Source of the DNA: an uncultured Nitrospiraceae bacterium
GTDB taxonomy: Bacteria > Nitrospirota > Thermodesulfovibrionia > Thermodesulfovibrionales > SM23-35
DNA: 64,000 bases
Direction of reading: 5' to 3'
NCBI GenBank assembly: GCA_963727775.1
Contig: CAVSHB010000001.1
Location: forward strand, 1,280,001-1,344,000
Shown here: positions 167 through 57,886 of the stretch, piece by piece
Numbering within the stretch: position 1 is the stretch's first letter
Layout: every line of letters starts with the position of its first letter
Position numbers and translations under genes: made by a program
The notes under the pieces: model-generated
Database searches by the model: none
What the model was told of the DNA's origin: nothing
What the model saw: the letters and a program-made list of their open reading frames with translations, nothing else

Positions 167-1285
167 TTATTCAGAATTCATTGCAGTGTGTTTTAACACA
201 TCTTCAAATTGAATGGCGATATCATCCCATAAGAATTGAGCCGCGGATTCCCTGGCCCGTTTCCCTAATACCTCTCTTTTCTTAATGTCTGACAACAATA
301 GTCTCATTTTATCCGACAGCTCGGCGGCCGATCCGGAGGGGAAACTGATCCCGAATCCTTCGCGGCTTACAAAAGCGAGTTCGGGTATGTCACTTACGAT
401 TACCGGTTTTCCGCAAGCAGCAGACTCAAGAATACTTATGGGTGAAGATTCATGCCGGGACGGCAGGACGAATATTCGGGCCCTTGACAAGAGCCTCACC
501 TTTTCATCGCCCGTCACAAAACCTGCATAGTCTATTCGTTTTTTTACAGGAGAATTAGAATCGGATATAAGCTCCTGAAATTTGTCGAATTCGTAACCTG
601 CGAGGATGAGTTTTATTTCGGGAAACTCGGCGCCGATCTCCTCAAAGGCCCTTATAAGAAGATCGAGTCCCTTAGTGTAAATGTCTATCCGGCTTAAGAA
701 AAGAATGTAGTCTCCATCTATAGGTGTGACGTTCAAAAGATACTTATTTATACCATTTGGTATGACGCGACAAAGGTCTACCTTTCTTTTGACCCTGGGC
801 ATCACCTTCTCCTTTGTTATCTCTGAAACGAAGATAAATTTGTCGTAGAGCCGGGGATAGTATTTCTCGGCCACATACATCGGGATGGAATAGAACGGAT
901 TGAATTTCCTTAACGAATGTCTTTCCATCACACCCTGAATCTGCAATATCACGGGTGTCTTTGTCATAAATCTCGAGAAAAAAGGCGTTGATGGCAGGAA
1001 ATTTTCTACGATGATGTCGAACCTGTCACCATTCCTTCGCACATAATCCGCTACTTTTACCGTATAGGAAAAGACACTCTTTGTAAGGCTTTCGCATTCT
1101 GTTCCGATGAATATATGCCTTAGTCCTTCAATCTCGGAATCTCTTGCCCCAGGATATTTCATGCAAAGAAGCGTAATATCATGTCTATCCTTCAATCTCT
1201 TATAAATTTCATAGGCCCTTACACCTGCCCCTCCGGATCCGAATGGGCTTCCAAGACTTTCATAGATGAGCTGAAGGATTTTCAT
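167..1285 (-). CDS. GT4 family glycosyltransferase
   Basis: 372 aa; FLSRIDIYTKGLDLL and PSRHESSPISILESAACGKPVIVSDI GT-B/GT4 motifs. Confidence 0.9.
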   Translation of the reverse strand: MKILQLIYESLGSPFGSGGAGVRAYEIYKRLKDRHDITLLCMKYPGARDSEIEGLRHIFIGTECESLTKSVFSYTVKVADYVRRNGDRFDIIVENFLPSTPFFSRFMTKTPVILQIQGVMERHSLRKFNPFYSIPMYVAEKYYPRLYDKFIFVSEITKEKVMPRVKRKVDLCRVIPNGINKYLLNVTPIDGDYILFLSRIDIYTKGLDLLIRAFEEIGAEFPEIKLILAGYEFDKFQELISDSNSPVKKRIDYAGFVTGDEKVRLLSRARIFVLPSRHESSPISILESAACGKPVIVSDIPELAFVSREGFGISFPSGSAAELSDKMRLLLSDIKKREVLGKRARESAAQFLWDDIAIQFEDVLKHTAMNSE

Positions 1286-1433: not shown

Positions 1434-2630
1434 TCACAAAGATTCCTTGCGAAGGTGGCGTGCGATTGCGGCTGCCGATCCGCCTGGAGGACGATAGAAC
1501 TGCCGCCGGATCACCTCGCGCCGCTTGTCGGCGTCAGGGTCGATGCCGCGCTCGATCCGGTCGAGAAACGATTTGAGACCCTGGATGCCGTCGGATCGTT
1601 CGACTACATCGCAGATCGCTTGACCCACTGGGTTCCACCCGGGATTGCCAGGGGCCTGCGTCAGCAGGAGCGGCTTCCCTGTGTATCCGAACTCTGCGAG
1701 AAACGATACCCCATCGGTCATCATAGCCCACGCTTGCTCGAATTGCTCGATGTGACTTGAATACGCCGGAAAACGCGTCGTCGCGGTGACGTTGCCATCG
1801 ACCGTAACGTTGTCGAGTTCCGCAGCCCTGGCGTGGAAGTGCAGTTCGTCCTGTTCGGTCCAGAGACCTTCGCTGCGAAGTTCGCTCCAGAGCAAAGGAT
1901 GCGGGCGAATGATGAATCGCATGTACGGTCGGTGCGCCGCCTCTTCGAGGACAGCCCGATATGAAGGAATGAAGGTCGAGTAACCGGCGGTCTTCTTATC
2001 TTCATCAGTCCAGTGAGTCGACCACCATGGACACCAGAGCACCGTAGGCACATCAGCGCGCCCCCGATCGATGTCCCAGTGATCGAGCGCTGGAGAGCCC
2101 GTGTGAATGATTCTTGACTTGTCAACTCCTGTGCATTCGTACTGCTGGGCACAATAGTCATTCTCCGCGTAGATGGCCTGGCATTCACGGAAGAAAGGAA
2201 GCTCGAACTGTGTCTCCGTCTCAGGGTAGATATTAAAGCCGTAGTTGATATAGTGAACCGGCAGACCGAGACGCCTGGGAGCCAGTGACTCGTGTCGCTG
2301 TTCGACATACTGCCTTGGCAAAAATACCGCCGCCGGACGAAGATCTCGGAGGCGGGTCGCCTCGGAATCTGCCGGAACAAAGCGCTCCGGCTCGAACCCG
2401 TGGGCCGCCAGCCACTCCCATACCCGGCTGGCAAGTACCAGATCGTAGTCGATCTCGGCGGAGGATGACCAGTGCCGCTCGGGAGTGACGACGATCTTTG
2501 TCGTCCAGCCAGCCTCACGAAGTGCGCAGACGACCGGCGCGACTATCTCGAAGGTTTCCATCCATTGCACCACGAAGGCCACGCAGTGTTCGGCTTCGCG
2601 TTTGAAACCACGTCTCCATTTCCATATCAT
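1434..2630 (-). CDS. CDP-glycerol glycerophosphotransferase (TagF)-like transferase; candidate CMP-phosphonate:glycan transferase
   Basis: 398 aa; TGSPALD, VLWCPWWS, IIRPHPLL and MTDGVSFLAEFGYTGKPLL resemble TagB/TagF-family motifs; last gene of the phosphonate operon. Confidence 0.65.
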   Translation of the reverse strand: MIWKWRRGFKREAEHCVAFVVQWMETFEIVAPVVCALREAGWTTKIVVTPERHWSSSAEIDYDLVLASRVWEWLAAHGFEPERFVPADSEATRLRDLRPAAVFLPRQYVEQRHESLAPRRLGLPVHYINYGFNIYPETETQFELPFFRECQAIYAENDYCAQQYECTGVDKSRIIHTGSPALDHWDIDRGRADVPTVLWCPWWSTHWTDEDKKTAGYSTFIPSYRAVLEEAAHRPYMRFIIRPHPLLWSELRSEGLWTEQDELHFHARAAELDNVTVDGNVTATTRFPAYSSHIEQFEQAWAMMTDGVSFLAEFGYTGKPLLLTQAPGNPGWNPVGQAICDVVERSDGIQGLKSFLDRIERGIDPDADKRREVIRRQFYRPPGGSAAAIARHLRKESL

Positions 2631-2639
2631 CTCGTTATC

Positions 2640-3338
2640 CTACCTTTTAACAAGAACAGCGCTGAAGCGGAATTTGCTTTGGATATAGTTCGGGATCTGC
2701 GAAGGAAAGATGCGACAGTCCACGTTGTGGGTTGCGGCAAGATCCAGAAACCAACCGCTTGGATAGTAGAGATGCTCCAGGCCTGCATAGCGTCGCTCGT
2801 ATTCATCAGCTTTGAACTTGTCGCGCCGCATCCTTTCAGCTGCGTCACGGCGACTCAGGTCGGGAATGTCGAGTACAGCGACGGCTCGCCTCGATTTGGC
2901 GATCATCAGGTCGAGCACCCGCCCGGCATAGTCAAGATCAGGGAAATAGTGGAAGACGCCGTTCGATATGACAAGATCGTAATAGGGAACCTGTGGCAGC
3001 TCTGCGGCTTCTAGGACTGCAAAGTCACCGGCAGGAAGGACCCTGCGCGTTACATCTATCAAGGCGGATGAGTAATCGCAGCCACCGATCCAAATTTCGA
3101 TCTGCTCCCGGAGCGCATACAGGAAGGCTCCTGCGCCGCAGCCGACTTCGTAGACTGAGCTGCCTGTGGTAATCCCAAGAATTTCCGATATTGTTCGAGC
3201 ATAAGATCGCATATTGTCGGGCGTGATCTGGGACACAGCGGTGTCGTAACCGTCGAGATCGAGCAGATCCCGAAGCCCAACGGTTTTGTCATCCGGCGGC
3301 TTGCGCTGGTTCCAAACCCCTTGCCAACGCGAATTCAT
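2640..3338 (-). CDS. Class I SAM-dependent methyltransferase (candidate AEP N-methyltransferase)
   Basis: 232 aa; VYEVGCGAGAF motif I, GCDYSSALI, DLVISNGVFHYF; ATGA-coupled to the upstream cytidylyltransferase. Confidence 0.8.
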   Translation of the reverse strand: MNSRWQGVWNQRKPPDDKTVGLRDLLDLDGYDTAVSQITPDNMRSYARTISEILGITTGSSVYEVGCGAGAFLYALREQIEIWIGGCDYSSALIDVTRRVLPAGDFAVLEAAELPQVPYYDLVISNGVFHYFPDLDYAGRVLDLMIAKSRRAVAVLDIPDLSRRDAAERMRRDKFKADEYERRYAGLEHLYYPSGWFLDLAATHNVDCRIFPSQIPNYIQSKFRFSAVLVKR

Positions 3339-4102
3339 GAGCCAGCCCTATGGTCTGATTTACTCTCTCGGACAAGGATGTCTGGGTATACCGTGTTTCT
3401 GACATGTAATAGATGTGCCTCATTGTCGATCTCCGACCAGGCGAGGTCATCAACGAGATGGCAGTAAACGGGGACGAGCTTGCCAACGGCTACAAGAGCG
3501 TCCTCGTATTCGAGTTTCAGCGTTGTTTTGAACACCTCATCCGCATATCGCTTCATCGCGCGGAAACAACCGAGAGACAGTTTGGTGATGCCGACCATTT
3601 CTCCGATAACCAACAAACCCAGGCGGGTGCGGTCCTTGGCCATCGCACGGAGCCGCCGATCGTCCGACACCTCGACATAGACCTCATCGCCCGATCCGGT
3701 AGGCCTGGACACGAGCATCACGTCCGATTCCGGATGGCCGAGCACTTCTACCAATGCGCGGCGCTCGTAAACGAGATCCGATTCCAAAAGCAGGAAGTCG
3801 GCTTCGATCCGTTCGATGACCAACGAAAGCGAATACATACTGCCGGACTTTGCGAAGAGGGGATTAGGAACGAGCGTTATCAGGTCAGGATAGCGCGCGG
3901 CAAGCCCCATGTAGTGATGAGGGAGGTGTCCGGTCACGATGATCATATGGCGGATTCCGCTCGCCGCCAGGCGGATCACAGACTCCTCCACGATCGGCAT
4001 CGTCCCGATTTCGATGAAACCTTTCGGCCGCTTTAACCCGGCCTCCTTCATCCGCAGGCCGCGGCCGGCGGCGAGAATGACGGCGGTATTCACGTTTTCC
4101 AT
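3335..4102 (-). CDS. LicC-like phosphocholine/phosphonate cytidylyltransferase
   Basis: 255 aa; AVILAAGRGLRM..PKG, SGSMYSL, LLESDLVYE, GSGDEVYV, GEMVGITK, WSEIDNEAHL. Confidence 0.85.
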   Translation of the reverse strand: MENVNTAVILAAGRGLRMKEAGLKRPKGFIEIGTMPIVEESVIRLAASGIRHMIIVTGHLPHHYMGLAARYPDLITLVPNPLFAKSGSMYSLSLVIERIEADFLLLESDLVYERRALVEVLGHPESDVMLVSRPTGSGDEVYVEVSDDRRLRAMAKDRTRLGLLVIGEMVGITKLSLGCFRAMKRYADEVFKTTLKLEYEDALVAVGKLVPVYCHLVDDLAWSEIDNEAHLLHVRNTVYPDILVRESKSDHRAGS

Positions 4103-5187
4103 CAGCCGCGCGCTCCGCAGAACACCGACTGAAGTATGCGGATCAGGCGGTCAAGATCGTTGTCACTGATAGCGCCCATGTTGGCGATGCGGAAGATCGT
4201 CTTCCGGAAATCCATCTGACCGGCGTAGATTACAAAGCCTCCCGCCTTCAGCTTATCGTGGATGCGTTTGTAGCTGTCGCTGGCCGGCAGCCGGAAGGCC
4301 GACATGACCGCGGAGGTATCTTTCTCCGGTAGGAGTGCTTCGACACCGAGCGTTTCCAGAGTCGAGCGCACCGTCCGAGAAATGAATCGGTATCGCTCCC
4401 GTCGGGTCCACCAGCCACCTGCTTCGGCGAATTCGTGCAACGCCTCCTGCAGTGCGAAACAGACGTGGACAGGCATGGTGAACGGCGACCATCCTGTGGT
4501 CTGTTCGGCGTAATAACGCTCCAGATCAAGATATAGTGACGTCGCGTGACCGGTGCTTCGGTCAAGCTGTTGGCGCTCGGCCAGTACGAAAGACAGCCCG
4601 GGAACACCGTGCAGGCACTTGTTTGCAGACGATGCAACAGCCAGCGGCTGCCATTCATCGAAGCGCAGTTCCTCGCCGCCAAAGCTGCTGACAGCATCGA
4701 CCAATAGACCCACGCCACGCTCCCGGCAGACGCCGGCAAGTTCATCAAGCCGGTTAAGCCTGCCTGTGGTGGTCTCGTGATGGACGATTGCCACGCACGC
4801 GATGGAGGAATCGGCGTCCAATGCCGCGACGACACGATCGCCGTCGACGGCCTCCGTCCATGCGGACCGAACGGCAATAGACGGCTTTCCCTGACGCTCC
4901 AGCATCAATGTCATCCGCTCCCCGTAGACACCGTTGGAGGCGACAAGAGTCGGACGCCCGCGTGGCGCGAAGGTGGAGAGCATCGCTTCTACGGCGGCGG
5001 TTCCGGATCCAGTGAGTAGTACGGCAGCATGGGTGCGCCTTACCTCCGGATAGACGGTCTCCAGCCGCTGCCTGATATCGAGGAACAATGCGGCGAATTC
5101 CGGCTCGCGATGGCATATATCCCCGCGCAGGAGTGCATTACGCACGCGCGGTGTCAACGTTACAGGACCCGGATTGAGGAGTATCAC
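4102..5187 (-). CDS. aepZ: 2-aminoethylphosphonate aminotransferase (PhnW/AepZ-like, PLP class V)
   Basis: 361 aa; LLNPGPV, GSGTAAVEA, NGVYGERM, HHETTTGRLN, DAVSSFG, SSANKCLHGVPG (PLP lysine). Confidence 0.9.
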   Translation of the reverse strand: MILLNPGPVTLTPRVRNALLRGDICHREPEFAALFLDIRQRLETVYPEVRRTHAAVLLTGSGTAAVEAMLSTFAPRGRPTLVASNGVYGERMTLMLERQGKPSIAVRSAWTEAVDGDRVVAALDADSSIACVAIVHHETTTGRLNRLDELAGVCRERGVGLLVDAVSSFGGEELRFDEWQPLAVASSANKCLHGVPGLSFVLAERQQLDRSTGHATSLYLDLERYYAEQTTGWSPFTMPVHVCFALQEALHEFAEAGGWWTRRERYRFISRTVRSTLETLGVEALLPEKDTSAVMSAFRLPASDSYKRIHDKLKAGGFVIYAGQMDFRKTIFRIANMGAISDNDLDRLIRILQSVFCGARG

Positions 5188-6341
5188 AAACGGTTCCCTC
5201 CGATATTGCGGACGTGGGCTCGAAATCGCTCCGTTGCCTGTGGGGGCTCCAATTTAGGACGGGGCAGGCCGGGGATCACGCCGGGTGTGATCATGGCTCG
5301 AATGAAAGTCAATCCACGCGCTCCTCCCTTGAGTAGGCGGAGAAACTCGCCCGGGTCGGCAAGGACGTGCGCGTCAGCGTAGCCGCAATTGAGGGCGATA
5401 CCAACAAGATCGACCGACCGCGAGACGGTAGACTGGCCTCCGGTCGACTCGTGCATGCTGTTGTCGAGCACGATGTGCACCAGATTGGAAGGCCGCTGAT
5501 AGCCGATCGCGGCCAATGCTCCTAAGCGCATCAGTGCAGCACCGTCACCATCGAGCACGATCACCCGTAGATCCGGGCGCTGAAGCGCCAGTCCGAGAGC
5601 GACGCTCGAAGCGCAGCCCATGGCTCCGACCAGGGAGAGCTGATGCGTACGGTCCGCCGAGGCGTAGAGTTCGCGTCCGGTATAGCCGGTCGTTGCTATC
5701 ACTACGTCGCGGTCGCCGACAGCCGCCTGGACGGCGGCAAGCATGTCGGCCCGGCTGGCGTTTATACGGTCAACTACGGGAGAGCAGGAACGGTTACCGC
5801 CAGTCGGCTTAACCTCCAAAAGCGGAGGGGCCGGTACGGGTGCCACCGAGTCTTTGCGCATGACGAGGCAATAGGGGATCCGCTCGGTCTCCATCCATGA
5901 GAGCGCGCGTCCGAAACACGGTTCGACATCCTCATCACGGATCGGGAAATACTCCCATCGGATCTCCATAAGGTCGAGAAGGCGAGTCGTGATCGATCCC
6001 ATGAGCCCGTGCTGTGGCTCATCTGGCGGTCCGCCGGGATCTCCCCGCAGCGTGGTGATCAGGAGCAAGGGTATCCGGTGGGTATTGGCAAGTGAGGTCA
6101 GCGGATTGACCGCATTTCCGAGGCCGGAGTTCTGAAACATCGCCACCGCACGGCCGCCGCCAATCTCTACCCCGGCGGCTATGGATACTGCATCGCCCTC
6201 GTTGCACGCCGGGACATAGCGCGTCGAGCTGTCGGTGATGACGTAATTGATGAAGGGCTGGAGGTAGGAGCAGGGCACGCCGCTCCACAGCACAAAGCTA
6301 TGGCGCCGAGCCGCTTCGACAAAGACCTGAGCACGGAGCAT
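5184..6341 (-). CDS. aepY: Phosphonopyruvate decarboxylase
   Basis: 385 aa; GVPCSYL, QNSGLGNAVNPLTSL, DEPQH, GAMGCASS, DGDGAALMRLG (ThDP motif), HESTGGQ. Confidence 0.93.
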   Translation of the reverse strand: MLRAQVFVEAARRHSFVLWSGVPCSYLQPFINYVITDSSTRYVPACNEGDAVSIAAGVEIGGGRAVAMFQNSGLGNAVNPLTSLANTHRIPLLLITTLRGDPGGPPDEPQHGLMGSITTRLLDLMEIRWEYFPIRDEDVEPCFGRALSWMETERIPYCLVMRKDSVAPVPAPPLLEVKPTGGNRSCSPVVDRINASRADMLAAVQAAVGDRDVVIATTGYTGRELYASADRTHQLSLVGAMGCASSVALGLALQRPDLRVIVLDGDGAALMRLGALAAIGYQRPSNLVHIVLDNSMHESTGGQSTVSRSVDLVGIALNCGYADAHVLADPGEFLRLLKGGARGLTFIRAMITPGVIPGLPRPKLEPPQATERFRAHVRNIGGNRL

Positions 6342-7957
6342 CAGAAGATCCCCGCGTTGATAACGTCATCGAGGCTATCCACGTCGCACCAATTGCCGCT
6401 GGTGTAAACGGCGCGGACCGGGGAGCCGCTGGCGATTAGCTCGTCGATGAGCCGGGGCATGGTCGCCATTCTATTGAGCGGCTTTGACAAAATGGCATCG
6501 AGAACCTTGACGATTTTGGGCAGGGCCTGCACGCCGATCCTGAGGAAGCCTATCCACTCGCCGTCGATTTCACCCGGGTCGATATCAGGAGAGATCCGCT
6601 CGATGAAGACGGGGCGGTTGTAGTGTTGGCGTGAATAGGGCAGTGAACACTTGGCATAGTCGGCGGTGCGTCCACGGTTGGCGCTTTCTCGCCATTGAGT
6701 GTCTATAGCTACGACCAGATCGCCCTCTGCCTCAATCAGGAGGTCGATGATGTATTTGCGGAAGATCACGTCGCCATAGGACACTATCACTCCGCCCTCG
6801 CTTTCGACGCGAGTCGTGATTCCCTTGCTGAGTGAGACGAGCTCGCCGGTAGTCTCATAGTCGTCATTATCGACACAGGTGACCCCGGGAATAGCGATCT
6901 TGTCTTTCTTGTACCCGCGGACAACGACAATTTCCCTGACACCTGCCATGTTGTAAGCCGATACTATGTGGTGCAAAAGCGGCGTACCGCCAATCCGGAC
7001 CATTGTTTTCGGACGGTCGCGAGTTAACTCGCCCAATTCTTCGCCGCGGCCCGCGGCGAGCACGATGGCCGCCGGTATGGTATCGGCGCGCGGCAGGTAG
7101 CGCTGTTCCGCATCCCGGAGAGCTGTCGCTCCCTGGAGGCGAAAGACATCGGCAACCGTGGCGATCTCGTCCTCGATGCGGACGACGGAACGGTCCTCCT
7201 TGATCCTACCTGCGACCTTGGCCATCGCAGCTATCGCGCCGCGGAGAAGATGGTTTGCCCATATGACTAGCGAAAAACCGTACTCCTGAAAGACCTCAGT
7301 CGGTGTCGAATAGTATTTTGTCGGGACGATAACAACAGGACTTCGATCTCCCCATTCGCGCTTGAACGTCAGCACCTCCTCGGGATCCGACAAGGCGCTG
7401 TGGATGAGGATGGCGTCGGCGCCTGCCCGATGATAGGCTTCTGCACGACGCAGTGCCTCGCTAAGCCCCCAGCCGGCAATAAAGGCCTCGACGCGGGCGA
7501 TGAGGCAGAAATCCGGGTCCGACTGGGCGTCCTTGCCGGCTTTGATCTTGCCGCAGAACTCATCAATTTCGGCGAGTGGCTGGCGGCGCCCTTCGATGAA
7601 GCTATTAGTCTTAGGGAACATCTTGTCCTCGATGCAGAGCGCTGCGATCGACCGTTGCTCAAGCTTCCGGACGAGACGCTGGACGTTGTTGAAATTGCCG
7701 AAGCCCGTGTCACCGTCCATCATGATCGGAAGGGTAGTGGCATCCGCCATGAACTCGAGGACATCGAGGACCTGTGTCCAACTTGCCTCATTGTTGTCAC
7801 GGACGCCGAGCTGGCTGGAGATCGTCAAACCGCTGCCCCAAACGCCTGGGAAACCCGCCTCCTCGACGATCTTGGCGCTCAGGCCATTGTGTGCCTCGCA
7901 GATGAATTCAAGATCTTTCGAACAAAGAAGCTGCTTGAATCGCGTGGTCTTGTTCAT
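6341..7957 (-). CDS. aepX: Phosphoenolpyruvate mutase fused to a C-terminal nucleotidyltransferase
   Basis: 538 aa; diagnostic Pep[11 protein letters not shown] (EDK-x5-NS) motif, [14 protein letters not shown]-terminal [13 protein letters not shown]-transferase domain. Confidence 0.95.
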
Positions 7958-8177: not shown

Positions 8178-9335
8178 TCATTGTTTTAACCGTTCGAAGG
8201 TCTTCGGGTAAGCCCGCCCCCTTCTTGTGTGCCGGGGTAATATTTTTTCATCGATAAAGCAGAAGCACTTATGCATGACCTTCCAGATCAGACTGCCCTC
8301 TATTTCTTTTAATCTGGACATCGCGGCTCTTCCTCCGTATTCTATCTCTGTGTTATAAATATCGAACTCACCCGTCAACCGGATAAAATCCCCGCAGGTA
8401 AATCCTAATTTTTGTTCAATTTTTTGAGCAGTTGCAGCATTACCCAGTAGATCAAACAATACGCCGACGGCAAAGCGATGATGTACCGGAGAATTTGTTT
8501 CGAGCGCCAGTATCGCAATGAAAAAAGGAATAAGATCATCCTCAAGGGTTTCTTTGTATTTCTTGAGTGCAGGAAATATCCTGCATAACTCATCGGTCGA
8601 TCTTATTGAAAAGAAATTTCTTAAGACTTGTTCCTTTTCCCATAGGTTTCTTATCCTGCTGTCCACCCTGTCTCCGTTTGCATTGACGCCTCCCGGCAGT
8701 TTTCTAAACTTGATCAGCTTTTCAGGTAATATATGGATTTCATATTTCATGCAAAGCTTAATCCATAAATCAAGGTCGGGCAATTGCGCAAATCTTGCAT
8801 CATAGTAACCAATGTCCTCGAAACATTTCTTGCGAAGCATACTGCTCGTACGACAAATACAATTGCCTTCATAAAAAAAATAATTAAGCCATTGATGACG
8901 TGTCCTATTAGGCTGGATGAAGATGTTGTAAAAAGAATCATTAACATCCGGCAAATTGCTCCCGGTTTCATTGATAATATGCGCATAAGCAAAAACCGCA
9001 CCTATATCCAGATGCTCATCTAAAAAGCGAACCTGCTTTTCAAGTTTGTCAGGCAAGAAAAGATCATCGGAACTTAAAGCGGCCAAATACTCTCCGCGCG
9101 CATGTTTAAAACATTTATTAGCGGCAAGAGAAACACCCTGGGTTTTTTCGATGGTAAAGAGCTTTATCCTAGGGTCAGTAAACTCCTTAATCTTGCCGAG
9201 AGTCCCATCTACCGAAGCGTCATCTGCGATTATTATTTCAAAATCCTGATATGTCTGATCTAAAACGCTCTGTATCGCTTCGGTTACGTATTTTTCATCA
9301 TTATATGAAGTAATTACTACACTGACTCTCGGCAT
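8178..9335 (-). CDS. GT2 family glycosyltransferase
   Basis: 385 aa; VSVVITSYN, IIADDASVD, LSSDD, DLDLWIKL. Confidence 0.9.
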   Translation of the reverse strand: MPRVSVVITSYNDEKYVTEAIQSVLDQTYQDFEIIIADDASVDGTLGKIKEFTDPRIKLFTIEKTQGVSLAANKCFKHARGEYLAALSSDDLFLPDKLEKQVRFLDEHLDIGAVFAYAHIINETGSNLPDVNDSFYNIFIQPNRTRHQWLNYFFYEGNCICRTSSMLRKKCFEDIGYYDARFAQLPDLDLWIKLCMKYEIHILPEKLIKFRKLPGGVNANGDRVDSRIRNLWEKEQVLRNFFSIRSTDELCRIFPALKKYKETLEDDLIPFFIAILALETNSPVHHRFAVGVLFDLLGNAATAQKIEQKLGFTCGDFIRLTGEFDIYNTEIEYGGRAAMSRLKEIEGSLIWKVMHKCFCFIDEKILPRHTRRGRAYPKTFERLKQ

Positions 9336-9354: not shown

Positions 9355-10467
9355 TCATCTCACACCACTCACAACATCCTGCAAAAAATCTTCATATTTT
9401 AAAGCTACCTTATCCCAGATAAAATCCTTTACCCATTCCCTCCCCCTTTGTCCCATCTCTTTTCGTTCATTGTTCGAGACAAGGTCCTTCATGGCTTGCG
9501 CAAGAGATGAAACATCCCCGCTTCTGAACACAACTCCGGTGCCCGCATCTCTGATCACCATAAATTCGGGAATATCACTCGCAATTACAGCCTTCCCGCA
9601 TGCCTTTGCCTCAAGGGTGCAGATGGATTGGACCTCGTGCCTTGAGGGGAAAACGCAAAACAGCGCCTTCCTTATCACTTCAACCTTTCTATCCCCCGAG
9701 ACCCAGCCCGCAAGCTCTATGGATTTTTTCACTTCCTCGGGCAACTTCATGAGTTCGGCCTGAAAGGTGTCCCGGTCCCTACCGTCTCCTGCGATAACCA
9801 GCCTGATATGAGGAAATGCCGCATGGAATTCCCTGTAGGCCTTGACGAGAAGATCCAGTCCCTTTCCATAAATATCGATTCTGCCGATGTAAAGGACATA
9901 CCCGTCTTCTTCCGGCACTGCATCCAGCAATTCACGTGAAACGCCGTTTGAAATAATCTGCACACGCTTCTTTCTTCCTACCTGGAGCTTTCTTGCAGTC
10001 TCCTGGCTTATGAAGATAAAGTTGTCATAAAACCCGGGTCTCAATAATTCCAGCACATAGAGAATCGAGGCATAAAGAGGATTATATTTACTGAAATAGA
10101 GAACTCCCGTGTGTCCCTGAATCTGTAAAATTACCGGCTTTTCTGTAAAGGCGTGCAGGAAGGTCGGGATTGCAGGGGAAAAATCCTCAATGATCACATC
10201 ATATTCGTCTCCATGTCTCTTAACAAACCGCGCGGCGTGACAGGCGTATGAGAGCAGAGTTTTCGTAAAGCTCTTGCTTTCGGTCCCGACAAAAACATGC
10301 TTTAAGCCGTCTTTCTCTCCATCCGCAGCCCCTGGATACTTTTTGCATAAAAGCGTTATATAATGACGGTCTTTCAGGTATTTATAAATCTCATACGCCC
10401 TTATCCCGACTCCACCTATACCAAAATAATCTCCCTCGCTTTCGTAGAGGAGATGAAGTATCTTCAT
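9355..10467 (-). CDS. GT4 family glycosyltransferase (paralogue of 167..1285)
   Basis: Start reassigned to MKILHLLYES (ATG overlapping upstream TGA); YIGRIDIYGKGLDLL, PSRHEVQSICTLEAKACGKAVIASDI. Confidence 0.9.
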   Translation of the reverse strand: MKILHLLYESEGDYFGIGGVGIRAYEIYKYLKDRHYITLLCKKYPGAADGEKDGLKHVFVGTESKSFTKTLLSYACHAARFVKRHGDEYDVIIEDFSPAIPTFLHAFTEKPVILQIQGHTGVLYFSKYNPLYASILYVLELLRPGFYDNFIFISQETARKLQVGRKKRVQIISNGVSRELLDAVPEEDGYVLYIGRIDIYGKGLDLLVKAYREFHAAFPHIRLVIAGDGRDRDTFQAELMKLPEEVKKSIELAGWVSGDRKVEVIRKALFCVFPSRHEVQSICTLEAKACGKAVIASDIPEFMVIRDAGTGVVFRSGDVSSLAQAMKDLVSNNERKEMGQRGREWVKDFIWDKVALKYEDFLQDVVSGVR

Positions 10468-11564
10468 CCCGTTTCCTCCACCGCCCTTTCGCATGACTTA
10501 ATAATGCCTTCTGCTGTTTTCCTCCATGAGAATTTCTTTGCGTTCTTGAATCCTTTATCGACAAGCTCTCTTCGCAATATTTCATCACAAATGACCTTTA
10601 AAATTAATGTGCCCAATACTCCGCTGTCTTCGGGGTCAAAGAGAAGCCCTGCATTTCCCACAACCTCAGGCAGTGAACCGCCGTTAGATGAAATAACAGG
10701 CGTTCCGCAGGCCATGGCTTCCAATGGAGGAATACCAAAACCTTCTCTCAATGAAGGATAGATGAATATATCAGCATAGGAATAAAAAAGCGGGAGTTCT
10801 TCAGCCGGAACATAATCCACATACGTAATCCTCTCGTCGCTCGCCAGGGATCCAGCGGAGAACTGCTGTTTCCCTACTATGACAAGGGAATGCGGTATCT
10901 GGTTCTTTATGCGTAAAAATGCATCTGTGAGGGTCTTCAGATTTTTGTATGGAAAGAGGGTGCCGACAAATAAGAGATAATTTTCCTTAAGACGATACTT
11001 ATCAAAAAAATCTCTTTTCCTCTCTTTGGGCATAGGGGTAAACAAGGTATCGCTATAGGCAAGGGGGACAACATCAATCATGCCCTCTCCGATATTTGTC
11101 GCCATGCACACTTCCTTCTTAATAAACTCGGAAGAGACGATTACCCTTTTTGCAATTCGCCCAAGCAATTTCAGGTAAAACTTCATGCGCGGCGCGGCCA
11201 GCCCAAAGTCCGATGCGAAATGGACAAAGTGAAGATCGTGCAGATGAACCACGAGAGATGTCAGGGGTGTGAAAGGAAACTCCAGAATAGGGCAGTAGAG
11301 GACATCCACCCCTCTGAGCCTGCAGAGCACGGGGAGAATGGTATTGATATAGGCAAGCCGGTACAGGCTGTTCGATAATCTCGCGGAGCCCTTCATTCCC
11401 TCGGGTACCTTAATGACAGAGTCTGATGGTAAATCATTCTGTTCAACAGGAGTGAACATCAACAGCTCTTTGTGGAGTGATATAAAACGCGATACCTCCC
11501 GCGTCAATATTCCTACCCCGGTGGGCTTCTCATTGAGAAAGGTGGCATTGATACCGATCTTCAT
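10464..11564 (-). CDS. GT4 family glycosyltransferase (mannosyltransferase-like)
   Basis: 366 aa; FVGTLFPYKNL, PSLREGFGIPPLEAMACGTPVISS. Confidence 0.9.
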   Translation of the reverse strand: MKIGINATFLNEKPTGVGILTREVSRFISLHKELLMFTPVEQNDLPSDSVIKVPEGMKGSARLSNSLYRLAYINTILPVLCRLRGVDVLYCPILEFPFTPLTSLVVHLHDLHFVHFASDFGLAAPRMKFYLKLLGRIAKRVIVSSEFIKKEVCMATNIGEGMIDVVPLAYSDTLFTPMPKERKRDFFDKYRLKENYLLFVGTLFPYKNLKTLTDAFLRIKNQIPHSLVIVGKQQFSAGSLASDERITYVDYVPAEELPLFYSYADIFIYPSLREGFGIPPLEAMACGTPVISSNGGSLPEVVGNAGLLFDPEDSGVLGTLILKVICDEILRRELVDKGFKNAKKFSWRKTAEGIIKSCERAVEETG

Positions 11565-16301: not shown

Positions 16302-16482
16302 TGTTTTTTCTTTTCATTATAAACTATTATACCAAGGTCGGAGTATAAAGTTTTCTTCGTATCGGGTCTAATGGCCTATAGATATTGAGAAGTTAAACTG
16401 AGCGGTTCAGCCTTTCTGATGTCGGGCAGCCTTGAGATTTTATGAATGGAAAACCGACTTCTTTAATCTCCAGGGTCAGGAT

Positions 16483-18330
16483 ATGTCATTCATCAAAGAA
16501 TTAAGGAAAATAACAAGTCAATCATGGTTTTCCTATTTGACCCTTTTCTTACTGCAGGCGAAGGTCCTCTGGGGTATATGGGAATATAAAGATATTGCAA
16601 ACGGAGACACTTCGAGTTACTTTCGATTCGCCTATCAATGGTTTCAAAATTATACGGTCAATATTGCCTGGTCGCCTCTTTATACGGCGTTCTATGGAAC
16701 TCTTTTGCATGTTTCGACCGATCCATTCACCGTAACGATTCTTCACCGCATCATTATAGTCTTTGCGATAACTCTAATGGTTTTGGCGTTGATGAGACAG
16801 TTGCTTCCTCACTCGGTAGCATGGATCGTGAGCGCATGGTGGGCTATTTTGCCCATCCATTTTGACTCGTTGTATGAGGTCCATCTCTTTGCAGTCATTG
16901 CGCCCTTGGCCGCATGTCTATTAGCTGCTTATAAACCGACTGCTTGGGCGCGAGGCTGTGCGCTCGCGATTATCGCCTGTTCATCTTTCTTGATTCGAAA
17001 TGAGCTTGTCGTGGCAGCTGCCGTCCTGGCTTTGCTCTATTTTTTGTGGGAGATAAGGCTCGTAAAGACCGCCAAGCTGGAAAATAGGGTAATACCACCA
17101 TTGAGACATTATCTGTATAGCTATATCATTCCTTTACTCTTGGCCGCTTTTGTTGTCATCTTTTTTTACTGGCGATCTGACGTTAAATATCCGCAGTTAA
17201 AGGATGTGTTTACCGATAAGCACACTCTGAATATGTGTCAGGTTTATGCATTTGGATACCAGCAGCGGCATCCGGAGTGGACAAAGAGTCCGTGGTTGGA
17301 ATGCCAGGAATTGATCCAGCAGCATTTTGGCTCGCCTCAGTTGTCGTTATCTGAAATGATCCTAAAAAACCCAAAAGCGGTGCTCGAAAATATGTTCTGG
17401 AATATCCGCTTGACGCCATATGGCCTGCAGGTATTGTTGTTCAATGTCACGTCCGGTTCGGCGAATCCGGATTACGCGCCAGTATTCAAATCTAACATGG
17501 CATTACTTTTCAGTTTTGTTATAGTAATACTTTTGGTCGGCGGAATAATTCTGTTTTACCGGGAAAAATCTTTCTGGTGGAATTACTGGCTAAAATCACG
17601 TTTTGTAGGATGGATGACTCTCGCCTCTCTTGCCGCAGTCTCTCCATTCATTATTCTGAGCCAGAGGCCCAGGCCATCATACCTTTTCACGACCGGCATT
17701 TTCCTGATGTCAGGCGTGGGTCTGTGCACTTTTATTGCTTTCCATCAATTATCCTTGTCAAAACGCCTATCGACCGCTATCTCTATGTTGTCAAAACGTC
17801 TATCGACTTTTGTCCCTATAATTTTGATTGCTCTATTCATTCTCATTCCAAGCTATTATCCCTACGTCAACAAAGCTAAATCTCGTCCCTTGCTCGAACT
17901 ATACCAAAGACTCGTGCCGTACAAGGAAGTGATTACGGAGCCTGAGGTTGTATTTATGGTGAATGGTTTCCCTTTTGAACTTCAGTCATATTTAGTAGCT
18001 ACGAAAGCTAAGCCCTTCGTATGGTATCGATTGGTCGATCAAATGCCGTCGACCTTACCATGTTTGGTCGATTTCGCGGAGATTTCCTTGCTCCAAATCC
18101 CAAAGAGTGCAGATAGTTGGAACATGCCGATAAATGAATATTTTGATAAGATAGGTGTGAATCTAATTTATATTGATAATAATCTCTGGACAACTCTGGA
18201 TAATCAGAGAATAAATCAGAAATTTATTAGAACACCTGAGTCAGTGGGATGGAAGATCATTGCTTATCAAAATATGTATTCAAACAAATGGATGTTGCTT
18301 CAGAGAATCAATAATGACAAAGCCCCATGA
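16483..18330 (+). CDS. Polytopic membrane protein, possible GT-C (polyprenol-phosphate-sugar-dependent) glycosyltransferase
   Basis: Multiple hydrophobic helices; acidic GDTSSY motif in the first loop; the only plus-strand gene inside the glycan cluster; start assigned to MSFIKEL. Confidence 0.55.
   Translation: MSFIKELRKITSQSWFSYLTLFLLQAKVLWGIWEYKDIANGDTSSYFRFAYQWFQNYTVNIAWSPLYTAFYGTLLHVSTDPFTVTILHRIIIVFAITLMVLALMRQLLPHSVAWIVSAWWAILPIHFDSLYEVHLFAVIAPLAACLLAAYKPTAWARGCALAIIACSSFLIRNELVVAAAVLALLYFLWEIRLVKTAKLENRVIPPLRHYLYSYIIPLLLAAFVVIFFYWRSDVKYPQLKDVFTDKHTLNMCQVYAFGYQQRHPEWTKSPWLECQELIQQHFGSPQLSLSEMILKNPKAVLENMFWNIRLTPYGLQVLLFNVTSGSANPDYAPVFKSNMALLFSFVIVILLVGGIILFYREKSFWWNYWLKSRFVGWMTLASLAAVSPFIILSQRPRPSYLFTTGIFLMSGVGLCTFIAFHQLSLSKRLSTAISMLSKRLSTFVPIILIALFILIPSYYPYVNKAKSRPLLELYQRLVPYKEVITEPEVVFMVNGFPFELQSYLVATKAKPFVWYRLVDQMPSTLPCLVDFAEISLLQIPKSADSWNMPINEYFDKIGVNLIYIDNNLWTTLDNQRINQKFIRTPESVGWKIIAYQNMYSNKWMLLQRINNDKAP
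17755..17820 (+). repeat. Imperfect 33-bp in-frame tandem duplication
   Basis: ttgtcaaaacgcctatcgaccgctatctctatg / ttgtcaaaacgtctatcgacttttgtccctata encoding LSKRLSTAISM / LSKRLSTFVPI. Confidence 0.8.
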
Positions 18331-18344: not shown

Positions 18345-20587
18345 TCAATACCTCACAAGCTTAATTTTATACAATAAATTATAGAACAGATGCTTAACCA
18401 AATATTTCCTTACATTCTTGTCGACTTCCTCCCGCGATACGACTCGTCGATGACACCTCTGGCGGATACGATCCATTTCTTGTTGTCCTGCTGAGATATT
18501 TGCCGAAGTCTTCTGGAGCTGATGCACTCTGAATGCGCCGAGAAAACGAGGGAGCCTGGCAAATCTGGCGCCGGCGTCACGGAATCGAAGTATCAAATCC
18601 CAGTCCATGGCAAACAGGAAACTTTCATCGATATACCCTCCGACCTTATCCCAGATTCTCCTCCTCCAGAAGAGCGTTTCCTGCGGCACATAATCCGCCC
18701 AGGATAATATCTCATCGTTATGCGGCGGGAGAACCCAACGTCCAATCTCCCGGTCAAGCAAGTCTATTAGAACCCTGTGCCCATAGACGACATCAACATC
18801 AGGGTGCGTCTCAAAAAACCCCGCCACATAGTGCAGGGTGCCCGGAAGGAGCAAATCATCAGAATTCAGATATGCCATAATTTCACCTGTTGTATGCTTG
18901 AACCCAATGTTGATGGCATTCGCCTGGCCCTTGTCCTCAGCTAACTCACAGTGGGAAAGCGATTCCCGATACCTTTCCAGTATTTCCCTTGTACCGTCAA
19001 CAGAGTCACCATCCTGGACAACATACTCCAGTTTCGGATAGTGTTGACTCAGCACACTTATTACAGTGCGTTCAATAAAATCTGCCTGATTAAAGGATGG
19101 CGTAACCATAGAGATAACGGGGAAAGAATCCAATATCTTTGTAAAAGTATAATGCTTCGGGACACTCATGGGTTTGGGCTTATGTTGATAGAGAACACCG
19201 AGACGCGGCAAAAATAAATTCGGCAACAGGTTTCCTAAGAAACTATTGAACCTGCGTAAGAAAACTGTTTGAACGCGTTTTAAAATATTGTAGACCCCGA
19301 TTTTGTCGGAAATAATAAAAATGATTGTCTTAAATGCAAAAGGCAAACTGACAAAAGATTCGATCCTTTCCTGTTCCGACATAAAACGGGAATAAATCTC
19401 ATCAATCGTATACTGAACGTTCCTTGCGCTATCACTCGAATCTGGAGCAAAATGCCAGTATAGCTTATTAAGACTCCAACTTCTCCGGTATGATTCAAAG
19501 TCATCAAAAAGGGCAATTATTTCACGAAGACAATCTTTAGTTTCCCTTGTTTTTGAAAAAGCGTATCCTTTTTCAATCAAGGGTTTCCTCAAGTTTTCGT
19601 CAAAATAGAGTCTATGAATTTTTTCTGCGAGATCTTTCTCGTTTCTTGGATCAAAAAGGATGGCTGCATCCTTGAGATGTTCATGCGAACCCAAGATCGA
19701 GGCAGCTAATACGGGGCATCCGAATGCAAAGGCCTCAAGGGGAGGGAAATTATCAGGTCCAAAAAATGAAGGATAGACAAGGGCGAAAGCATTTTTATAG
19801 AGAGAAGCCAGTACATGACGGTCAACAAAGCCTTTGAAGATTATCTTCTTTGTCAACCCTAATTTCACCGCAACCTCTTTCACATGACCGAGATTTCCCA
19901 TATCTGAACCGGTAAAGACAAGATGAAAATCGTGAGAATATTTATCGACAAGAATTCTTAGGGCATGGAGTAAAACTATATGATTTTTATGGGGCCAGAA
20001 TTGAGCAGGATAGAAAAGAAAAGGCTTTGGGACATCATTAAAAAGTGTATCACTTATTTTCTTGTAATCGAAAACCCAATTCGGGGTTGGGAAAGAGATT
20101 ACTTTAATCCTTTCGTTTAATACGCGGTAAAAATCGTGTATTTCTTCTTTCCTTTCTCTGTGCCGGTAATAACACAAGCTGCTCTGGGAAGGAATTCCCT
20201 GTAGTTGGTTTCTCTTTTATCCCAGGTCCACCCGGTTTGGCTGACTTCAGGGAAAAAAGGCTGTTTTCTGTGCTCTAGGTCCAAAACTGTGCAGATGATC
20301 GGGAGATGGACGTGCTCGAAAGGAGGCACCATGAACCAGCAGATATCTATCTTGTGTTTCAGCAACTGAAAGGACAAATCAGTAATATTGTCCTGACGAG
20401 TTACCGTTTTGCCCAACGATATAAAATTCCAGCGCTCATTTCCAAGTGTAAATCCCTCACCATAGTGAAAAAAATAAAAATCGTGTTTCCCGTTATATTT
20501 GGTAAGTTCTTCAACAAGGTCCTCCTGATAAGTATATCCTCCCCCGAATTCCTTAGGCTGATATCCTAAACAGACGCCTATCCTCAT
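18345..20587 (-). pseudogene. GT4-GT2 bifunctional glycosyltransferase split by a single-base frameshift near 20148-20150
   Basis: ORF 20117..20587 ends ...VITGTEKG and ORF 18345..20177 continues KEEIHDFY...; adding one A joins them. GT4 motif YPAQFWPHKNH...PPLEAFAFGCPV and GT2 motif VTPSFNQ...YLNSDD are both present. Confidence 0.75.
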
Positions 20588-20643: not shown

Positions 20644-22044
20644 TCACTGATTTCCCTGCAATCTTCCGACAAACAAGATTCGGTCGGGCTCGAACCGCAA
20701 TTCAGCAACGCAATTAAAATGCTTTTCAAATGCTTTTCTCAAAGACCATCTGTCACACCATTCAGATTGCGGCACTGAAGCGTCGAGCCTATTACAGGGT
20801 TTTGAAATCATAAATTCGACAAAAGCATAATCGTTTGTATAACTCGCCAGACTCTTCAATATACTCTCCAGGGGATATTGCTGCAAATAACGCTCCAAAG
20901 GTACCGCAGCCACTGCCTGTGCTTTAAGCCGTTCGGCAGGTTCTGGATCTGCTAAATCCACAACAGCCGGAGTAATCGGAAAGCTCCTGTTCTTTGCGAA
21001 TGTATATGCCTTCTCGATCGCAGATGGGTCGTTATCAATACAAACCACTTGTTTAACTGACGTCTGTATCAACAACCTTTCCAAGAACTGAACGTTGGGG
21101 CCTCCAAATTGAACGACAGAAGAAATGTTTTCCGACTCAATCAGGCGGAGTATTTCGTCAAGATAAGGGGAAGAAGACACTTCGCCGCGTGCTCCGTGGA
21201 TATTGTGATGACAAGACCGTGCGCTGCCAGTTGGTCCAAAAGTTATCTGCTCTATTTTTCTTGAGAGCGATCGAGAGGTTGTATGCCTGAACAGCCACGC
21301 CCTTTTCCTCATAAACATGAGCAATTTTCCATTCAGGCGAGAATGCGCTCGTCTTATTTCTTCATTCTCACAAAAGGGTAAGACCATCGCAGAGAAATAC
21401 AAGGAGATCAGTTTTCTCAATGCAGCAGGATTAACCCGTCTCAAGAGTCCCCATTTCCAGAGCAGATAGCTTTTATGCAGCCGGACAGCAAGCGTATTAG
21501 CGCCCTGTTCATCTCCAAGCGAGTACACCTTGAGGGGATAGTAGTACAACTGCAGAAATTCAGGGTAGCACCTAAAACAATCCCTGTTTTCTTTTGTTTC
21601 AACTTCACCTCTTATAAAACTCCCGATATCGATATAAATAGGACGAGAACCGTCAAACAGTATATTCCCAGGATGACAATCTTTTAAATAATATCCATGG
21701 TCAGCAGCTATCATTGCTATTCTTAGCACTAAAAGGGCAGTATCCTTTAACATGGAGAATGTCCATTCGCGGCAATATGTCACACGATCAATTTTTCTGT
21801 GCTCGATCACCAGATCATACCCATCAATCTCATAATCCGTAATCCATGAATCAATGAAAAAACCTTCCCCCATAAGTTCCTTAACCATTTCAGAAGCAAG
21901 AAGCTCTTTTACATGTTCTGAATATTCTTTATGTATCGCTCTAAATACATGTCCCTTCCAAAAGAATATTTTACCAACATTATCATATGTCCATTCACAG
22001 AATTTTACTTCCTGAATGGCGATGCGCCTTTTCGTCTTCAACAT
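20644..22044 (-). CDS. Kinase-like plus degenerate methyltransferase-like protein (NoeA-like architecture)
   Basis: EWTFSMLKDTAL..LKDCHPGNILFDGSRPIYIDIGSF resembles a kinase catalytic loop and DFG-like motif; C-terminal Rossmann-like VVCIDND..AIEKAY, YAFVEF. Confidence 0.6.
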   Translation of the reverse strand: MLKTKRRIAIQEVKFCEWTYDNVGKIFFWKGHVFRAIHKEYSEHVKELLASEMVKELMGEGFFIDSWITDYEIDGYDLVIEHRKIDRVTYCREWTFSMLKDTALLVLRIAMIAADHGYYLKDCHPGNILFDGSRPIYIDIGSFIRGEVETKENRDCFRCYPEFLQLYYYPLKVYSLGDEQGANTLAVRLHKSYLLWKWGLLRRVNPAALRKLISLYFSAMVLPFCENEEIRRAHSRLNGKLLMFMRKRAWLFRHTTSRSLSRKIEQITFGPTGSARSCHHNIHGARGEVSSSPYLDEILRLIESENISSVVQFGGPNVQFLERLLIQTSVKQVVCIDNDPSAIEKAYTFAKNRSFPITPAVVDLADPEPAERLKAQAVAAVPLERYLQQYPLESILKSLASYTNDYAFVEFMISKPCNRLDASVPQSEWCDRWSLRKAFEKHFNCVAELRFEPDRILFVGRLQGNQ

Positions 22045-22805
22045 TTCCGAGCCACAGCCACAATATGCCATATATTTTCAGTAATGTTTTCACATGTTGA
22101 AAACCCGGCAAACCATTTTATGGGAACAAACCCATTGCCTTCCAGGATAGCCGCCATTTCCTGTACGAGGAAGTATCGCACCACCTGCGTTTCTTTGAGC
22201 TGGGAATATGCGCCGTCATTGTTCAGCTCGAATATGCTGTACGAAACTTCACATGCCTGCCGGGAATGGTCAAGCGTCGTTTCTGATATCCTCAGGACTT
22301 CACCTTTTTCCGTTATCCATCGCCTGACCCGAACGGGCTCATAGTGACGGAGTATCGCTCCGGCATTCCAGAATTCGAACACTAATAAACCATCGGCATG
22401 TAAATGATGATGAATCCCTTGAAGGGTTTGTGTAAGTGCCTCATTAGTCACAACATGCCCTATGGAGTCGAATAGACAGATTGCCGCATCAAAGGGTCCT
22501 TTCTTTAAGTTCAGTGAACGCATATCCTGATTATAAAACTCCACTTGAGAAGACAGCCTTCCAGCCTTTTGGAGTGCGACGGCCAGCATGGAATTCGAAT
22601 AATCTGTCGCGGCAATCTCATAGCCCAACTTCTCAAGCTCTATGGCATGTGATCCTGTTCCGCATGCCAATTCAAGAACTGAACAGGTTGGCCGCTTACC
22701 GAATTCCTGCAGGCAGTAATGGACAAATGCCGCCTCTTCAGCATATGGTTTATCCTTATAGAAGATGTCATAGAGCTCTGCATAGCGGCCGCCATAGGAG
22801 TTCAT
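22038..22805 (-). CDS. SAM methyltransferase resembling amino-sugar N,N-dimethyltransferases (TylM1/DesVI-like)
   Basis: 255 aa; YAELYDIFY..KPYAEEA, VLELACGTGSH, DMRSL..FDAAICLFDSIGHV. Confidence 0.8.
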   Translation of the reverse strand: MNSYGGRYAELYDIFYKDKPYAEEAAFVHYCLQEFGKRPTCSVLELACGTGSHAIELEKLGYEIAATDYSNSMLAVALQKAGRLSSQVEFYNQDMRSLNLKKGPFDAAICLFDSIGHVVTNEALTQTLQGIHHHLHADGLLVFEFWNAGAILRHYEPVRVRRWITEKGEVLRISETTLDHSRQACEVSYSIFELNNDGAYSQLKETQVVRYFLVQEMAAILEGNGFVPIKWFAGFSTCENITENIWHIVAVARKC

Positions 22806-23953: not shown

Positions 23954-24363
23954 CAGTCGACCTCTACAATGATTTTATCGTTCTCGGATCCCATAAACGG
24001 CCCCTGCTTCACACTGATACACTGCATATCCTCAAGGACACGAAGAGCATGAATACCGTGAACCAGCACAATCGCGTCACCGGGATTAAGCACAACTTCT
24101 CTCAGAAGCTTCTTCTCGTCGCTGTACAATTGCACTGCAACCTTACCGCGCTGCACAACAAACATCTGTTGAAGATCCGTAATTGTTTTTGTTATGGGTT
24201 TATGAAAATGGGGAGGTTCCACAAAACCGGCCTTATGCGCCAGAAGGCCAAACTGGAATGAGGATTCGGGTTTTGAGAAGAATGTAGTTTGATCAACCTC
24301 GGTATCTGCCCAGATTATTTCCGCATATGTAGTGTCTCCGAATTCTATCTTTTCGATACCCAT
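23953..24363 (-). CDS. Cupin-fold protein associated with nucleotide-sugar biosynthesis
   Basis: 136 aa; PHFHK...QMFVVQRGKV...GDAIVLVHGIH..VKQGPF cupin pattern. Confidence 0.7.
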   Translation of the reverse strand: MGIEKIEFGDTTYAEIIWADTEVDQTTFFSKPESSFQFGLLAHKAGFVEPPHFHKPITKTITDLQQMFVVQRGKVAVQLYSDEKKLLREVVLNPGDAIVLVHGIHALRVLEDMQCISVKQGPFMGSENDKIIVEVD

Positions 24364-57771: not shown

Positions 57772-57886
57772 TTCCCCATTTTTCGCTCCACCCAGTCCAG
57801 TCAAGCCCCTCTATTTGCTATTTTGTCCAAAGTCCTTATCCATTCTGGCCAGCGCAAGGAATGCCTGTGAAATTTATAATTGATAC

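Follow-up and report, generated by a model that had tools for sequence, protein, structure and literature searches.

Gene content of the block

The stretch analyzed here, termed the window, comprises 64,000 nucleotides of contig CAVSHB010000001.1 (positions 1,280,001 to 1,344,000; assembly GCA_963727775.1) from an uncultured Nitrospiraceae bacterium. Near its start lies a minus-strand block of six uninterrupted open reading frames (ORFs), spanning positions 1434 to 7957, whose products may make 2-aminoethylphosphonate (AEP) from phosphoenolpyruvate (PEP), activate it with CTP, methylate it and transfer it to a surface glycan. From the first gene to the last, the block consists of:

6341..7957, minus strand: PEP mutase PepM (residues ~7-277) with a C-terminal MobA-like nucleotidyltransferase domain, 538 aa (TIGR02320, PF12804)
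5184..6341, minus strand: phosphonopyruvate decarboxylase Ppd, 385 aa (TIGR03297)
4102..5187, minus strand: AEP transaminase AEPT, 361 aa (TIGR03301)
3335..4102, minus strand: PntC-type AEP cytidylyltransferase, 255 aa (best PDB match 6pd1)
2640..3338, minus strand: class I S-adenosylmethionine (SAM) methyltransferase of an uncharacterised family, predicted CMP-AEP N-methyltransferase, 232 aa (202 homologues, residues, gene neighbourhoods)
1434..2630, minus strand: ORF6, a divergent TagF-like GT-B protein and candidate phosphonyl transferase, 398 aa (remote homology, fold)

The reading of ORFs and junctions bears out the initial annotation, which described six tightly coupled genes, five of them joined by overlapping stop and start codons. 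The first five genes are connected by four overlaps: 1 nt at 6341 between pepM and ppd (TGATG), 4 nt between ppd and aepT (GTGA), 1 nt at 4102 between aepT and pntC (TGATG), and 4 nt between pntC and the methyltransferase gene (ATGA). A gap of 9 bp separates the latter from ORF6. Both the methyltransferase and ORF6 are predicted to be soluble proteins.

Predicted synthesis and activation of AEP

The first three proteins score above the curated cut-offs of their families: 383.8 bits for PepM on TIGR02320 (cut-off 319.55), 377.1 bits for Ppd on TIGR03297 (cut-off 312.5) and 364.1 bits for AEPT on TIGR03301 (cut-off 360.8). In PepM, the ten residues at position 110 match the diagnostic motif EDKxxxxxNS. 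The C-terminal nucleotidyltransferase domain, which matches PF12804, is without counterparts of the PntC residues Arg15, Glu104 and Glu196. Ppd and AEPT are both present and no PhpC, PhnY or RhiG was found in the neighbourhood, which places the block in the AEP (Ppm-Ppd-AEPT) branch of phosphonate synthesis. No Fe-ADH, Aldedh or aldolase family was detected among the 34 proteins scanned in 167-39932, and an HMGL-like LeuA lies 34 kb from the block. The route from PEP to AEP that had been assigned to these three enzymes is thus upheld.

The fourth gene had been described as LicC-like. Its role in cytidylyl activation stands, as does the designation of cytidylyltransferase, but its product is far closer to PntC of Treponema denticola (6pd1, E 2.8e-48) than to LicC (1jyk, E 4.4e-9). 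Residues R17, K27, E107, K156 and E200 align with the active-site residues R15, K25, E104, K153 and E196 of the T. denticola enzyme. The Glu104/Glu196 pair is placed at the amine of AEP in the account of PntC in PMC6697681; LicC has Asp where the window protein keeps the Glu pair (E107/E200). By sequence comparison, the fourth gene is a pntC rather than a licC.

Methyltransferase family and its gene neighbourhoods

A total of 202 homologues of the methyltransferase were found, in which Y131, R171, Y180, Y184 and H189, all located outside the SAM site, are invariant. Twelve distinct loci with matches above 150 bits were counted, four weaker matches below 100 bits being set aside; the family profile was itself built with three proteins of these 12 loci. 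All 12 retain Y131, Y180, Y184 and R224, and 11 retain R171 and H189. The family is rare, with 2-3 strong matches per sample in three samples of 401 genomes, and it also occurs on one plasmid and three viral contigs. Structure searches yield only the class I fold. By profile, phosphoethanolamine N-methyltransferases rank 2-3 (E 6e-9 to 1e-8), with a match over the SAM-binding part only.

The contexts of the 12 loci are few and not all mutually independent. A LicC/PntC-like nucleotidyltransferase or LicD lies within about two genes of the methyltransferase in nine of them, and a predicted amine source is adjacent in seven. This source is AEPT in the window, L001 and L005, the three loci that are copies of the six-gene cassette, an AEPT-like protein in L046, and a CobD-like fusion in L050 (a Gloeothece plasmid), L040 and L056. 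In the last three loci, the methyltransferase has as neighbours LicD and a nucleotidyltransferase with a fused pyridoxal phosphate domain, for which the best match, below its cut-off, is the threonine-phosphate decarboxylase CobD. In L042 the methyltransferase directly precedes pepM-ppd-pntC, and in L041 LicD is found 1.3 kb away. The partners of the methyltransferase would make AEP or, in the CobD-like contexts, probably phosphoethanolamine. The AEP contexts and the decarboxylase contexts share an aminoethyl group linked to cytidine mono- or diphosphate (CMP or CDP). The simplest function is hence N-methylation, and these neighbourhoods indicate that the enzyme likely N-methylates an activated amine.

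Several other arrangements were observed in this family. The module of CobD-like fusion, methyltransferase and LicD recurs in three distant bacteria (L050:8100-11562; L056:4226-10893; L040:8660-12510) and could constitute a choline-independent CDP-choline route for phosphorylcholine decoration. In a 430-kb IMG/VR record (L046:7983-10966), genes for the methyltransferase, an AEPT-like protein, a PntC-like protein and LicD stand in a row; no pepM was found within this viral record, and the module might use AEP that is scavenged or made by the host to decorate glycans. In a low-GC phage (L045:319-9346), a gene of the family has genes for a DNA methylase, for thymidylate synthase and for gp32 around it, a setting that might point to modification of DNA bases. 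Two further pepM genes were considered and set aside. The pepM of genome G535, taken as support for an orphan methyltransferase there, was dropped, as pepM is present in 24/24 genomes of that family; a pepM cluster in G958, 14 kb from the methyltransferase, was rejected as an amine source, being of the hydroxyethylphosphonate (HEP) type with Fe-ADH.

ORF6 as a remote relative of TagF

Searches with the family rather than the single sequence connect ORF6 to polyol-phosphate transferases. A profile of 50 sequences finds TarL first (E 1.5e-12), followed by TagF (7e-5) and UDP-GlcNAc 2-epimerase (9e-5); a narrow family profile and a search with a single relative found nothing in PDB. PF04464 is matched directly only by relatives of ORF6, ORF6 itself aligns with a PF04464 protein end to end (hhalign 98.7%), and it is placed with PF04464 clusters of the Atlas at 0.97. 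The predicted model (pLDDT 89.2) has a GT-B fold and, among the top 1000 Foldseek matches that were re-aligned, superimposes on TagF with Z 22.0 and rmsd 3.5 over 312 aligned residues.

TagF-like enzymes are described as needing two histidines (PMC5974469, PMC10901376). H244 of ORF6, within the profile motif RPHP, aligns with H584 of TagF (RMH584) and H433 of TarL (KMH433), and this position is His in 140/140 aligned relatives. The HMMER alignments of the ORF6 profile begin downstream of the general-base His (TagF H444, TarL H300). The family also keeps TagF-type P-x-W, R/K-x-H and D-x-S segments. On present evidence, which is of sequence and predicted fold, ORF6 would work like TagF, and it is not assigned to the class. 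The clade that contains it counts 2929 representatives, is related to PF04464 and has near-invariant Tyr and His (P0198-P0343).

ORF6 stands directly behind pntC or pntC-methyltransferase in four loci, and closer homologues (71-79%) occur on unplaced metagenome contigs. In actinomycete-type loci the homologue forms the N-terminal part of proteins of 827-909 aa (L006:10016-12499; L003:9734-12463), the C-terminal halves of which have no Pfam or NCBIfam match. Fusions were scanned in 49 relatives, taken from the best 150 and mostly the longest. Sixteen are fused to a SAM methyltransferase and many to TPR or glycosyltransferase domains (GT41, GT61, GT4); the fused methyltransferases reach at most 39 bits on the profile of the window family and were rejected as members of it. 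Additionally, both ORF6 homologues of one Acidobacteriota metagenome-assembled genome (MAG) are frameshifted (L005:10001-11174; L004:1880-3060), which could reflect assembly error or decay.

Probable foreign origin of the block

The block differs sharply in composition from the genome in which it is found. Its GC content is 58.6% vs 45% for the genome, the highest of 1050 genome windows of 6.5 kb, and GC3 is 0.60-0.71 vs 0.42-0.51, with a sharp GC step and no amelioration. The features that define its borders are:

1450..7900, no strand: high-GC island coinciding with the six genes, 58.8% vs 43-44% in the flanks (change-point fit)
167..1285, minus strand: GT4 glycosyltransferase of host GC, downstream of the block, sharing 47% identity with the GT4 at 9355-10494
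8178..9335, minus strand: host-GC GT2 glycosyltransferase upstream of the block (family scan, GC)

Forty relatives, 24 from the host's family and 16 from its order, gave no full-length PepM match; their best matches are partial and 27-44% identical. Among 301 genomes sampled separately from the phylum, pepM is present in 47/50 and 24/24 genomes of two other families and in 0/7 of the host's family. The same six-gene order occurs in an uncultured Acidobacteriota genome (L005), with a PepM 80% identical and 70% DNA identity over 6.5 kb. In a Thermoanaerobaculia genome, also of the Acidobacteriota, the six genes are divided between two contigs (L043 and L001). The neighbours of both copies are glycosyltransferase, DegT and gmd or WbqC genes. 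Identity of the PepM domain is 83-87% with the Acidobacteriota copies and 60-74% with those of phylum-mates, and the window sequence groups with the Acidobacteriota copies in a PepM tree that is weakly supported and unrooted. Taken together, the GC contrast, the lack of a full pepM in the relatives and the shared gene order in Acidobacteriota make horizontal acquisition of the block likely. Neither the GC contrast nor a foreign origin figures in the initial annotation. Because the tree is weak and unrooted and closer ORF6 homologues lie on unplaced contigs, no donor is claimed.

Host-GC glycosyltransferases on both sides, including the 47% identical GT4 paralogues, fit an insertion better than a chimeric assembly. 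A repeat search at the island ends revealed no terminal repeats or target duplication, ARAGORN predicted no tRNA in the 90 kb around the island, and no transposase or integrase family was found among the flanking proteins scanned. Promoter-like sites are no commoner than in shuffled sequences (10 vs 7.3 +/- 2.7); one is located at 8085-8057, upstream of pepM, and is given no weight as evidence.

Other stretches of 53-56% GC were seen in the host genome (G000:C3:237250-253500; C1:13000-19500; C4:253500-263250; C1:1004250-1010750) and are likely further imported islands. Within a pepM-rich family of the host's phylum, genome G535 carries ppd-aepT-pntC beside a CDP-alcohol phosphotransferase; this arrangement, with the high frequency of pepM in the two families, suggests lineage-wide phosphonolipids.

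Surrounding glycan locus and candidate acceptor

Around the block, GT2 and GT4 glycosyltransferase, gmd, DegT-type aminotransferase and methyltransferase genes form a run that ends in an exporter, located about 20 kb from the block in host-GC DNA and outside the cassette:

28025-28780, minus strand: wzt, 251 aa, ATPase domain only (PF00005)
28795-29580, minus strand: wzm (PF01061)

The host genome (96.8% complete) contains three wzm/wzt pairs, LpxC, two Wzy_C genes and four PF01066 CDP-alcohol phosphotransferase genes, and neither LicD nor PF05159 (KpsS/C-type) is matched in it. Some 5 kb downstream, a PMT_2-type membrane glycosyltransferase is encoded (L018). The likeliest acceptor is the O-polysaccharide exported by Wzm/Wzt of the surrounding locus, in line with the glycan destination originally proposed. 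Given the several wzm/wzt pairs, the CDP-alcohol phosphotransferases and the PMT_2-type enzyme, a protein glycan or a lipid is a possible acceptor. The description of the surface groups as phosphatase-resistant was overstated, as a P-O ester would still join them to the sugar; cleavage of such groups by HF is reported in PMC6994554.

Five ORFs of the glycan locus are without a Pfam match: 16432-18330 (+), 20644-22071 (-), 25240-26205 (-), 23953-24363 (-) and 20117-20587 (-). The first encodes a hydrophobic protein of 632 aa on the strand opposite to the locus. Farther away, an archaeal-type ATPase with DUF234, a CHAT-domain protein of 895 aa and an unannotated ORF of 354 aa (53604-59664) interrupt a set of ABC peptide transporter genes (51894-53453, 60539-62240) and may be a second insertion.

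Proposed pathway and alternatives

The pathway proposed for the probably imported cassette leads from PEP through AEP and CMP-AEP to N-methyl-CMP-AEP and on to a surface glycan; as a whole, we give it an about even chance of being correct. In the first three steps, PepM, Ppd and AEPT would convert PEP to phosphonopyruvate, phosphonoacetaldehyde and AEP, as expected from established enzymology of families matched above their curated cut-offs. PntC, which closely resembles the characterised enzyme and keeps its active site, would then form CMP-AEP from AEP and CTP. Judging from gene neighbourhoods, the methyltransferase would N-methylate the product with SAM, probably on the CMP conjugate because PntC keeps a small AEP pocket. 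Finally, remote homology and position suggest that ORF6 would move the phosphonate to a sugar hydroxyl of the glycan with release of CMP. In Clostridioides difficile, FtaC is reported to methylate CDP-threonine once, and not phosphothreonine, after which the TagF-like FtaD transfers the product to GlcNAc (bioRxiv 10.64898/2026.02.12.704994). By this precedent of methylation after cytidylylation, the small pocket of PntC is compatible with a methylated product. The likely N-methylation role changes the predicted product from that of the initial annotation.

Several observations weigh against this pathway and have to be considered together with the alternatives that they favour. Among the methyltransferase loci, 3 of the 12 (L045, L047, L055) are without the neighbours described above. 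Locus L007 has aepT-pntC-ORF6 without the methyltransferase, which would hence be dispensable for the cassette, and no AEPT was found in the MAG that carries L042, where the methyltransferase is present. In the fold search, phosphoethanolamine N-methyltransferases rank no higher than 21st in Foldseek, where many other matches tie with them, so that amine methyltransferases are not singled out. The observations on L007, L042 and the fold search, with the small, AEP-type pocket of PntC, would be compatible with a glycan that bears plain AEP, the methyltransferase acting otherwise, e.g. by O-methylation of a phosphonate oxygen or of a sugar; phosphonate O-methyltransferases such as DhpI exist. 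However, the family recurs beside LicD and CobD-like fusions, which themselves lack phosphonate chemistry, the common handle in those contexts being a primary amine, and the order of reactions of FtaC removes the objection from the pocket. Decoration with plain AEP is considered improbable, though with a real share of the probability. Furthermore, the three copies of the cassette are not independent, and ORF6 is frameshifted in the L005 copy.

For ORF6 itself, the label TagF-like is supported by profile, hhalign, Atlas and fold but not by any family match of its own: it has no Pfam or NCBIfam match, a single-sequence PDB search returned nothing, and PF04464 is not matched at E 0.01. The position of the first catalytic His is apparently taken by Tyr130, a correspondence read from motif position, and is Tyr in 135/136 aligned relatives. 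UDP-GlcNAc 2-epimerases fit the fold slightly better than TagF (Z 23.4, rmsd 3.7, 316 aligned) and head both fold searches; in the predicted model, the GT-B fold alone does not separate TagF from an epimerase. Phosphonate genes are found at 3 of 17 ORF6-related loci, many of which are short, no pepM match was obtained in two of three actinomycete-type genomes with a close homologue, and no fusion to PepM or to a nucleotidyltransferase was seen among the 49 relatives scanned. ORF6 might accordingly be an epimerase, or a transferase for another CMP or CDP donor, with CMP-AEP passed to a lipid by a CDP-alcohol phosphatidyltransferase, as in the lipid-type arrangement of G535 and in keeping with the four PF01066 genes of the host. 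We regard this as unlikely: ORF6 shares the foreign GC of the block and directly follows pntC or pntC-methyltransferase in four loci, its profile favours TarL (1.5e-12) over epimerases (9e-5) with TagF-type segments kept, and no PF01066 gene lies in the cassette. There is a comparably small chance that the block was imported recently and is silent or unable to act on host glycans, or that it is an assembly artefact. The sharp, unameliorated GC step and the absence of a full pepM from all 40 relatives would be expected in that case, whereas the six intact frames are co-oriented with the host locus and, within a 1.57-Mb contig, host-GC glycosyltransferases that include the GT4 paralogues lie on either side. 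Lastly, a diffusible phosphonate small molecule is very improbable as the product. Trimethyl-AEP is described as an intermediate of dehydrofosmidomycin (PMC9296572) and cytidylylation as part of fosfomycin synthesis (PMC6697681), but the block is without an oxygenase, ligase, NRPS or exporter and lies in glycan loci in three genomes.

Relation to known systems

The block had been called the best candidate for an undescribed system in the window. This is not the case for its core, as the set of Ppm-nucleotidyltransferase, Ppd, AEPT and PntC has already been published (PMC6697681; PMC8942020). PMC6697681, in which the Pnt pathway is named, reports a fused nucleotidyltransferase in about 60% of Ppm enzymes. 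In PMC8942020, AEP is predicted for more than half of phosphonate pathways, and the same four-gene core is described in Burkholderiales. The block resembles the Pnt pathway of Treponema denticola, Atopobium rimae and Olsenella uli in its PF12804-fused Ppm, Ppd, AEPT, nearby PntC and glycan genes. Whereas the Pnt clusters presented in PMC6697681 have LicD-like or glycosyltransferase neighbours, with no transfer enzyme named in the literature consulted, the window has a TagF-like candidate and a methyltransferase between it and PntC. The seven-gene Burkholderiales_CDP-OH core likewise contains a Ppm-PntC fusion, Ppd, AEPT and a second PntC; unlike the window block, it includes an oxygenase and two phospholipid genes and is predicted to yield a phosphonolipid (PMC8942020).

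The later steps have their closest parallels elsewhere. FtaABCD of C. difficile follows the same logic of cytidylylation, N-methylation of the CDP conjugate and TagF-like transfer, a likeness of steps and not of compared sequences; its donor, as reported, is phosphothreonine, a phosphate, and its acceptor O-GlcNAc on flagellin. ORF6 shares the GT-B fold, the second catalytic His and remote homology with TagF and TarL (PMC5974469, PMC10901376), and differs from them in the apparent Tyr in place of the first catalytic His, the lack of a direct PF04464 match and the predicted CMP-phosphonate donor. As in LicABCD, a CDP-activated aminoethyl-phosphorus group would be placed on a surface glycan; unlike LicABCD, described as using imported choline and LicD (PMC10434233), the cassette would build a C-P head group from PEP, and LicD was not found in the host. 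The new part is the methyltransferase with the Tyr-type TagF-like ORF6, the four-gene core being already known. No description of this pair was found in the open-access literature.

N-methyl-AEP is described as frequent in nature, with bacteria having enzymes for its degradation (PMC10590968). The producers named in the literature consulted are marine invertebrates, and the only bacterial N-methylated AEP named is a Streptomyces antibiotic intermediate (PMC9296572). Phosphonate decoration of bacterial surfaces is predicted to be common, yet the literature consulted does not assign the steps after CMP-AEP (PMC6697681), and the routes by which phosphonates are transferred to glycans are presented as not known (PMC6994554); the cassette supplies candidates for these steps. 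The methyltransferase family also hints at a possible de novo phosphorylcholine route outside the four pathways set out in PMC10434233.

A further-reaching reading, which we consider possible but doubtful, is that trimethyl-AEP, a C-P mimic of phosphorylcholine, is displayed on the surface, that the methyltransferases form a family of CDP/CMP-aminoethyl N-methyltransferases, and that ORF6 is a Tyr-type CMP-phosphonate:glycan transferase. If so, the same methyltransferase family would also complete a choline-independent CDP-choline route in the LicD loci of three bacteria, namely a cyanobacterium, an actinomycete and an acidobacterium; this route would consist of a phosphoserine decarboxylase-cytidylyltransferase fusion, the methyltransferase and LicD. 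ORF6 would then be the first CMP-phosphonate:glycan transferase to be identified, and would come from a large TagF-like clade with Tyr in place of a catalytic His.

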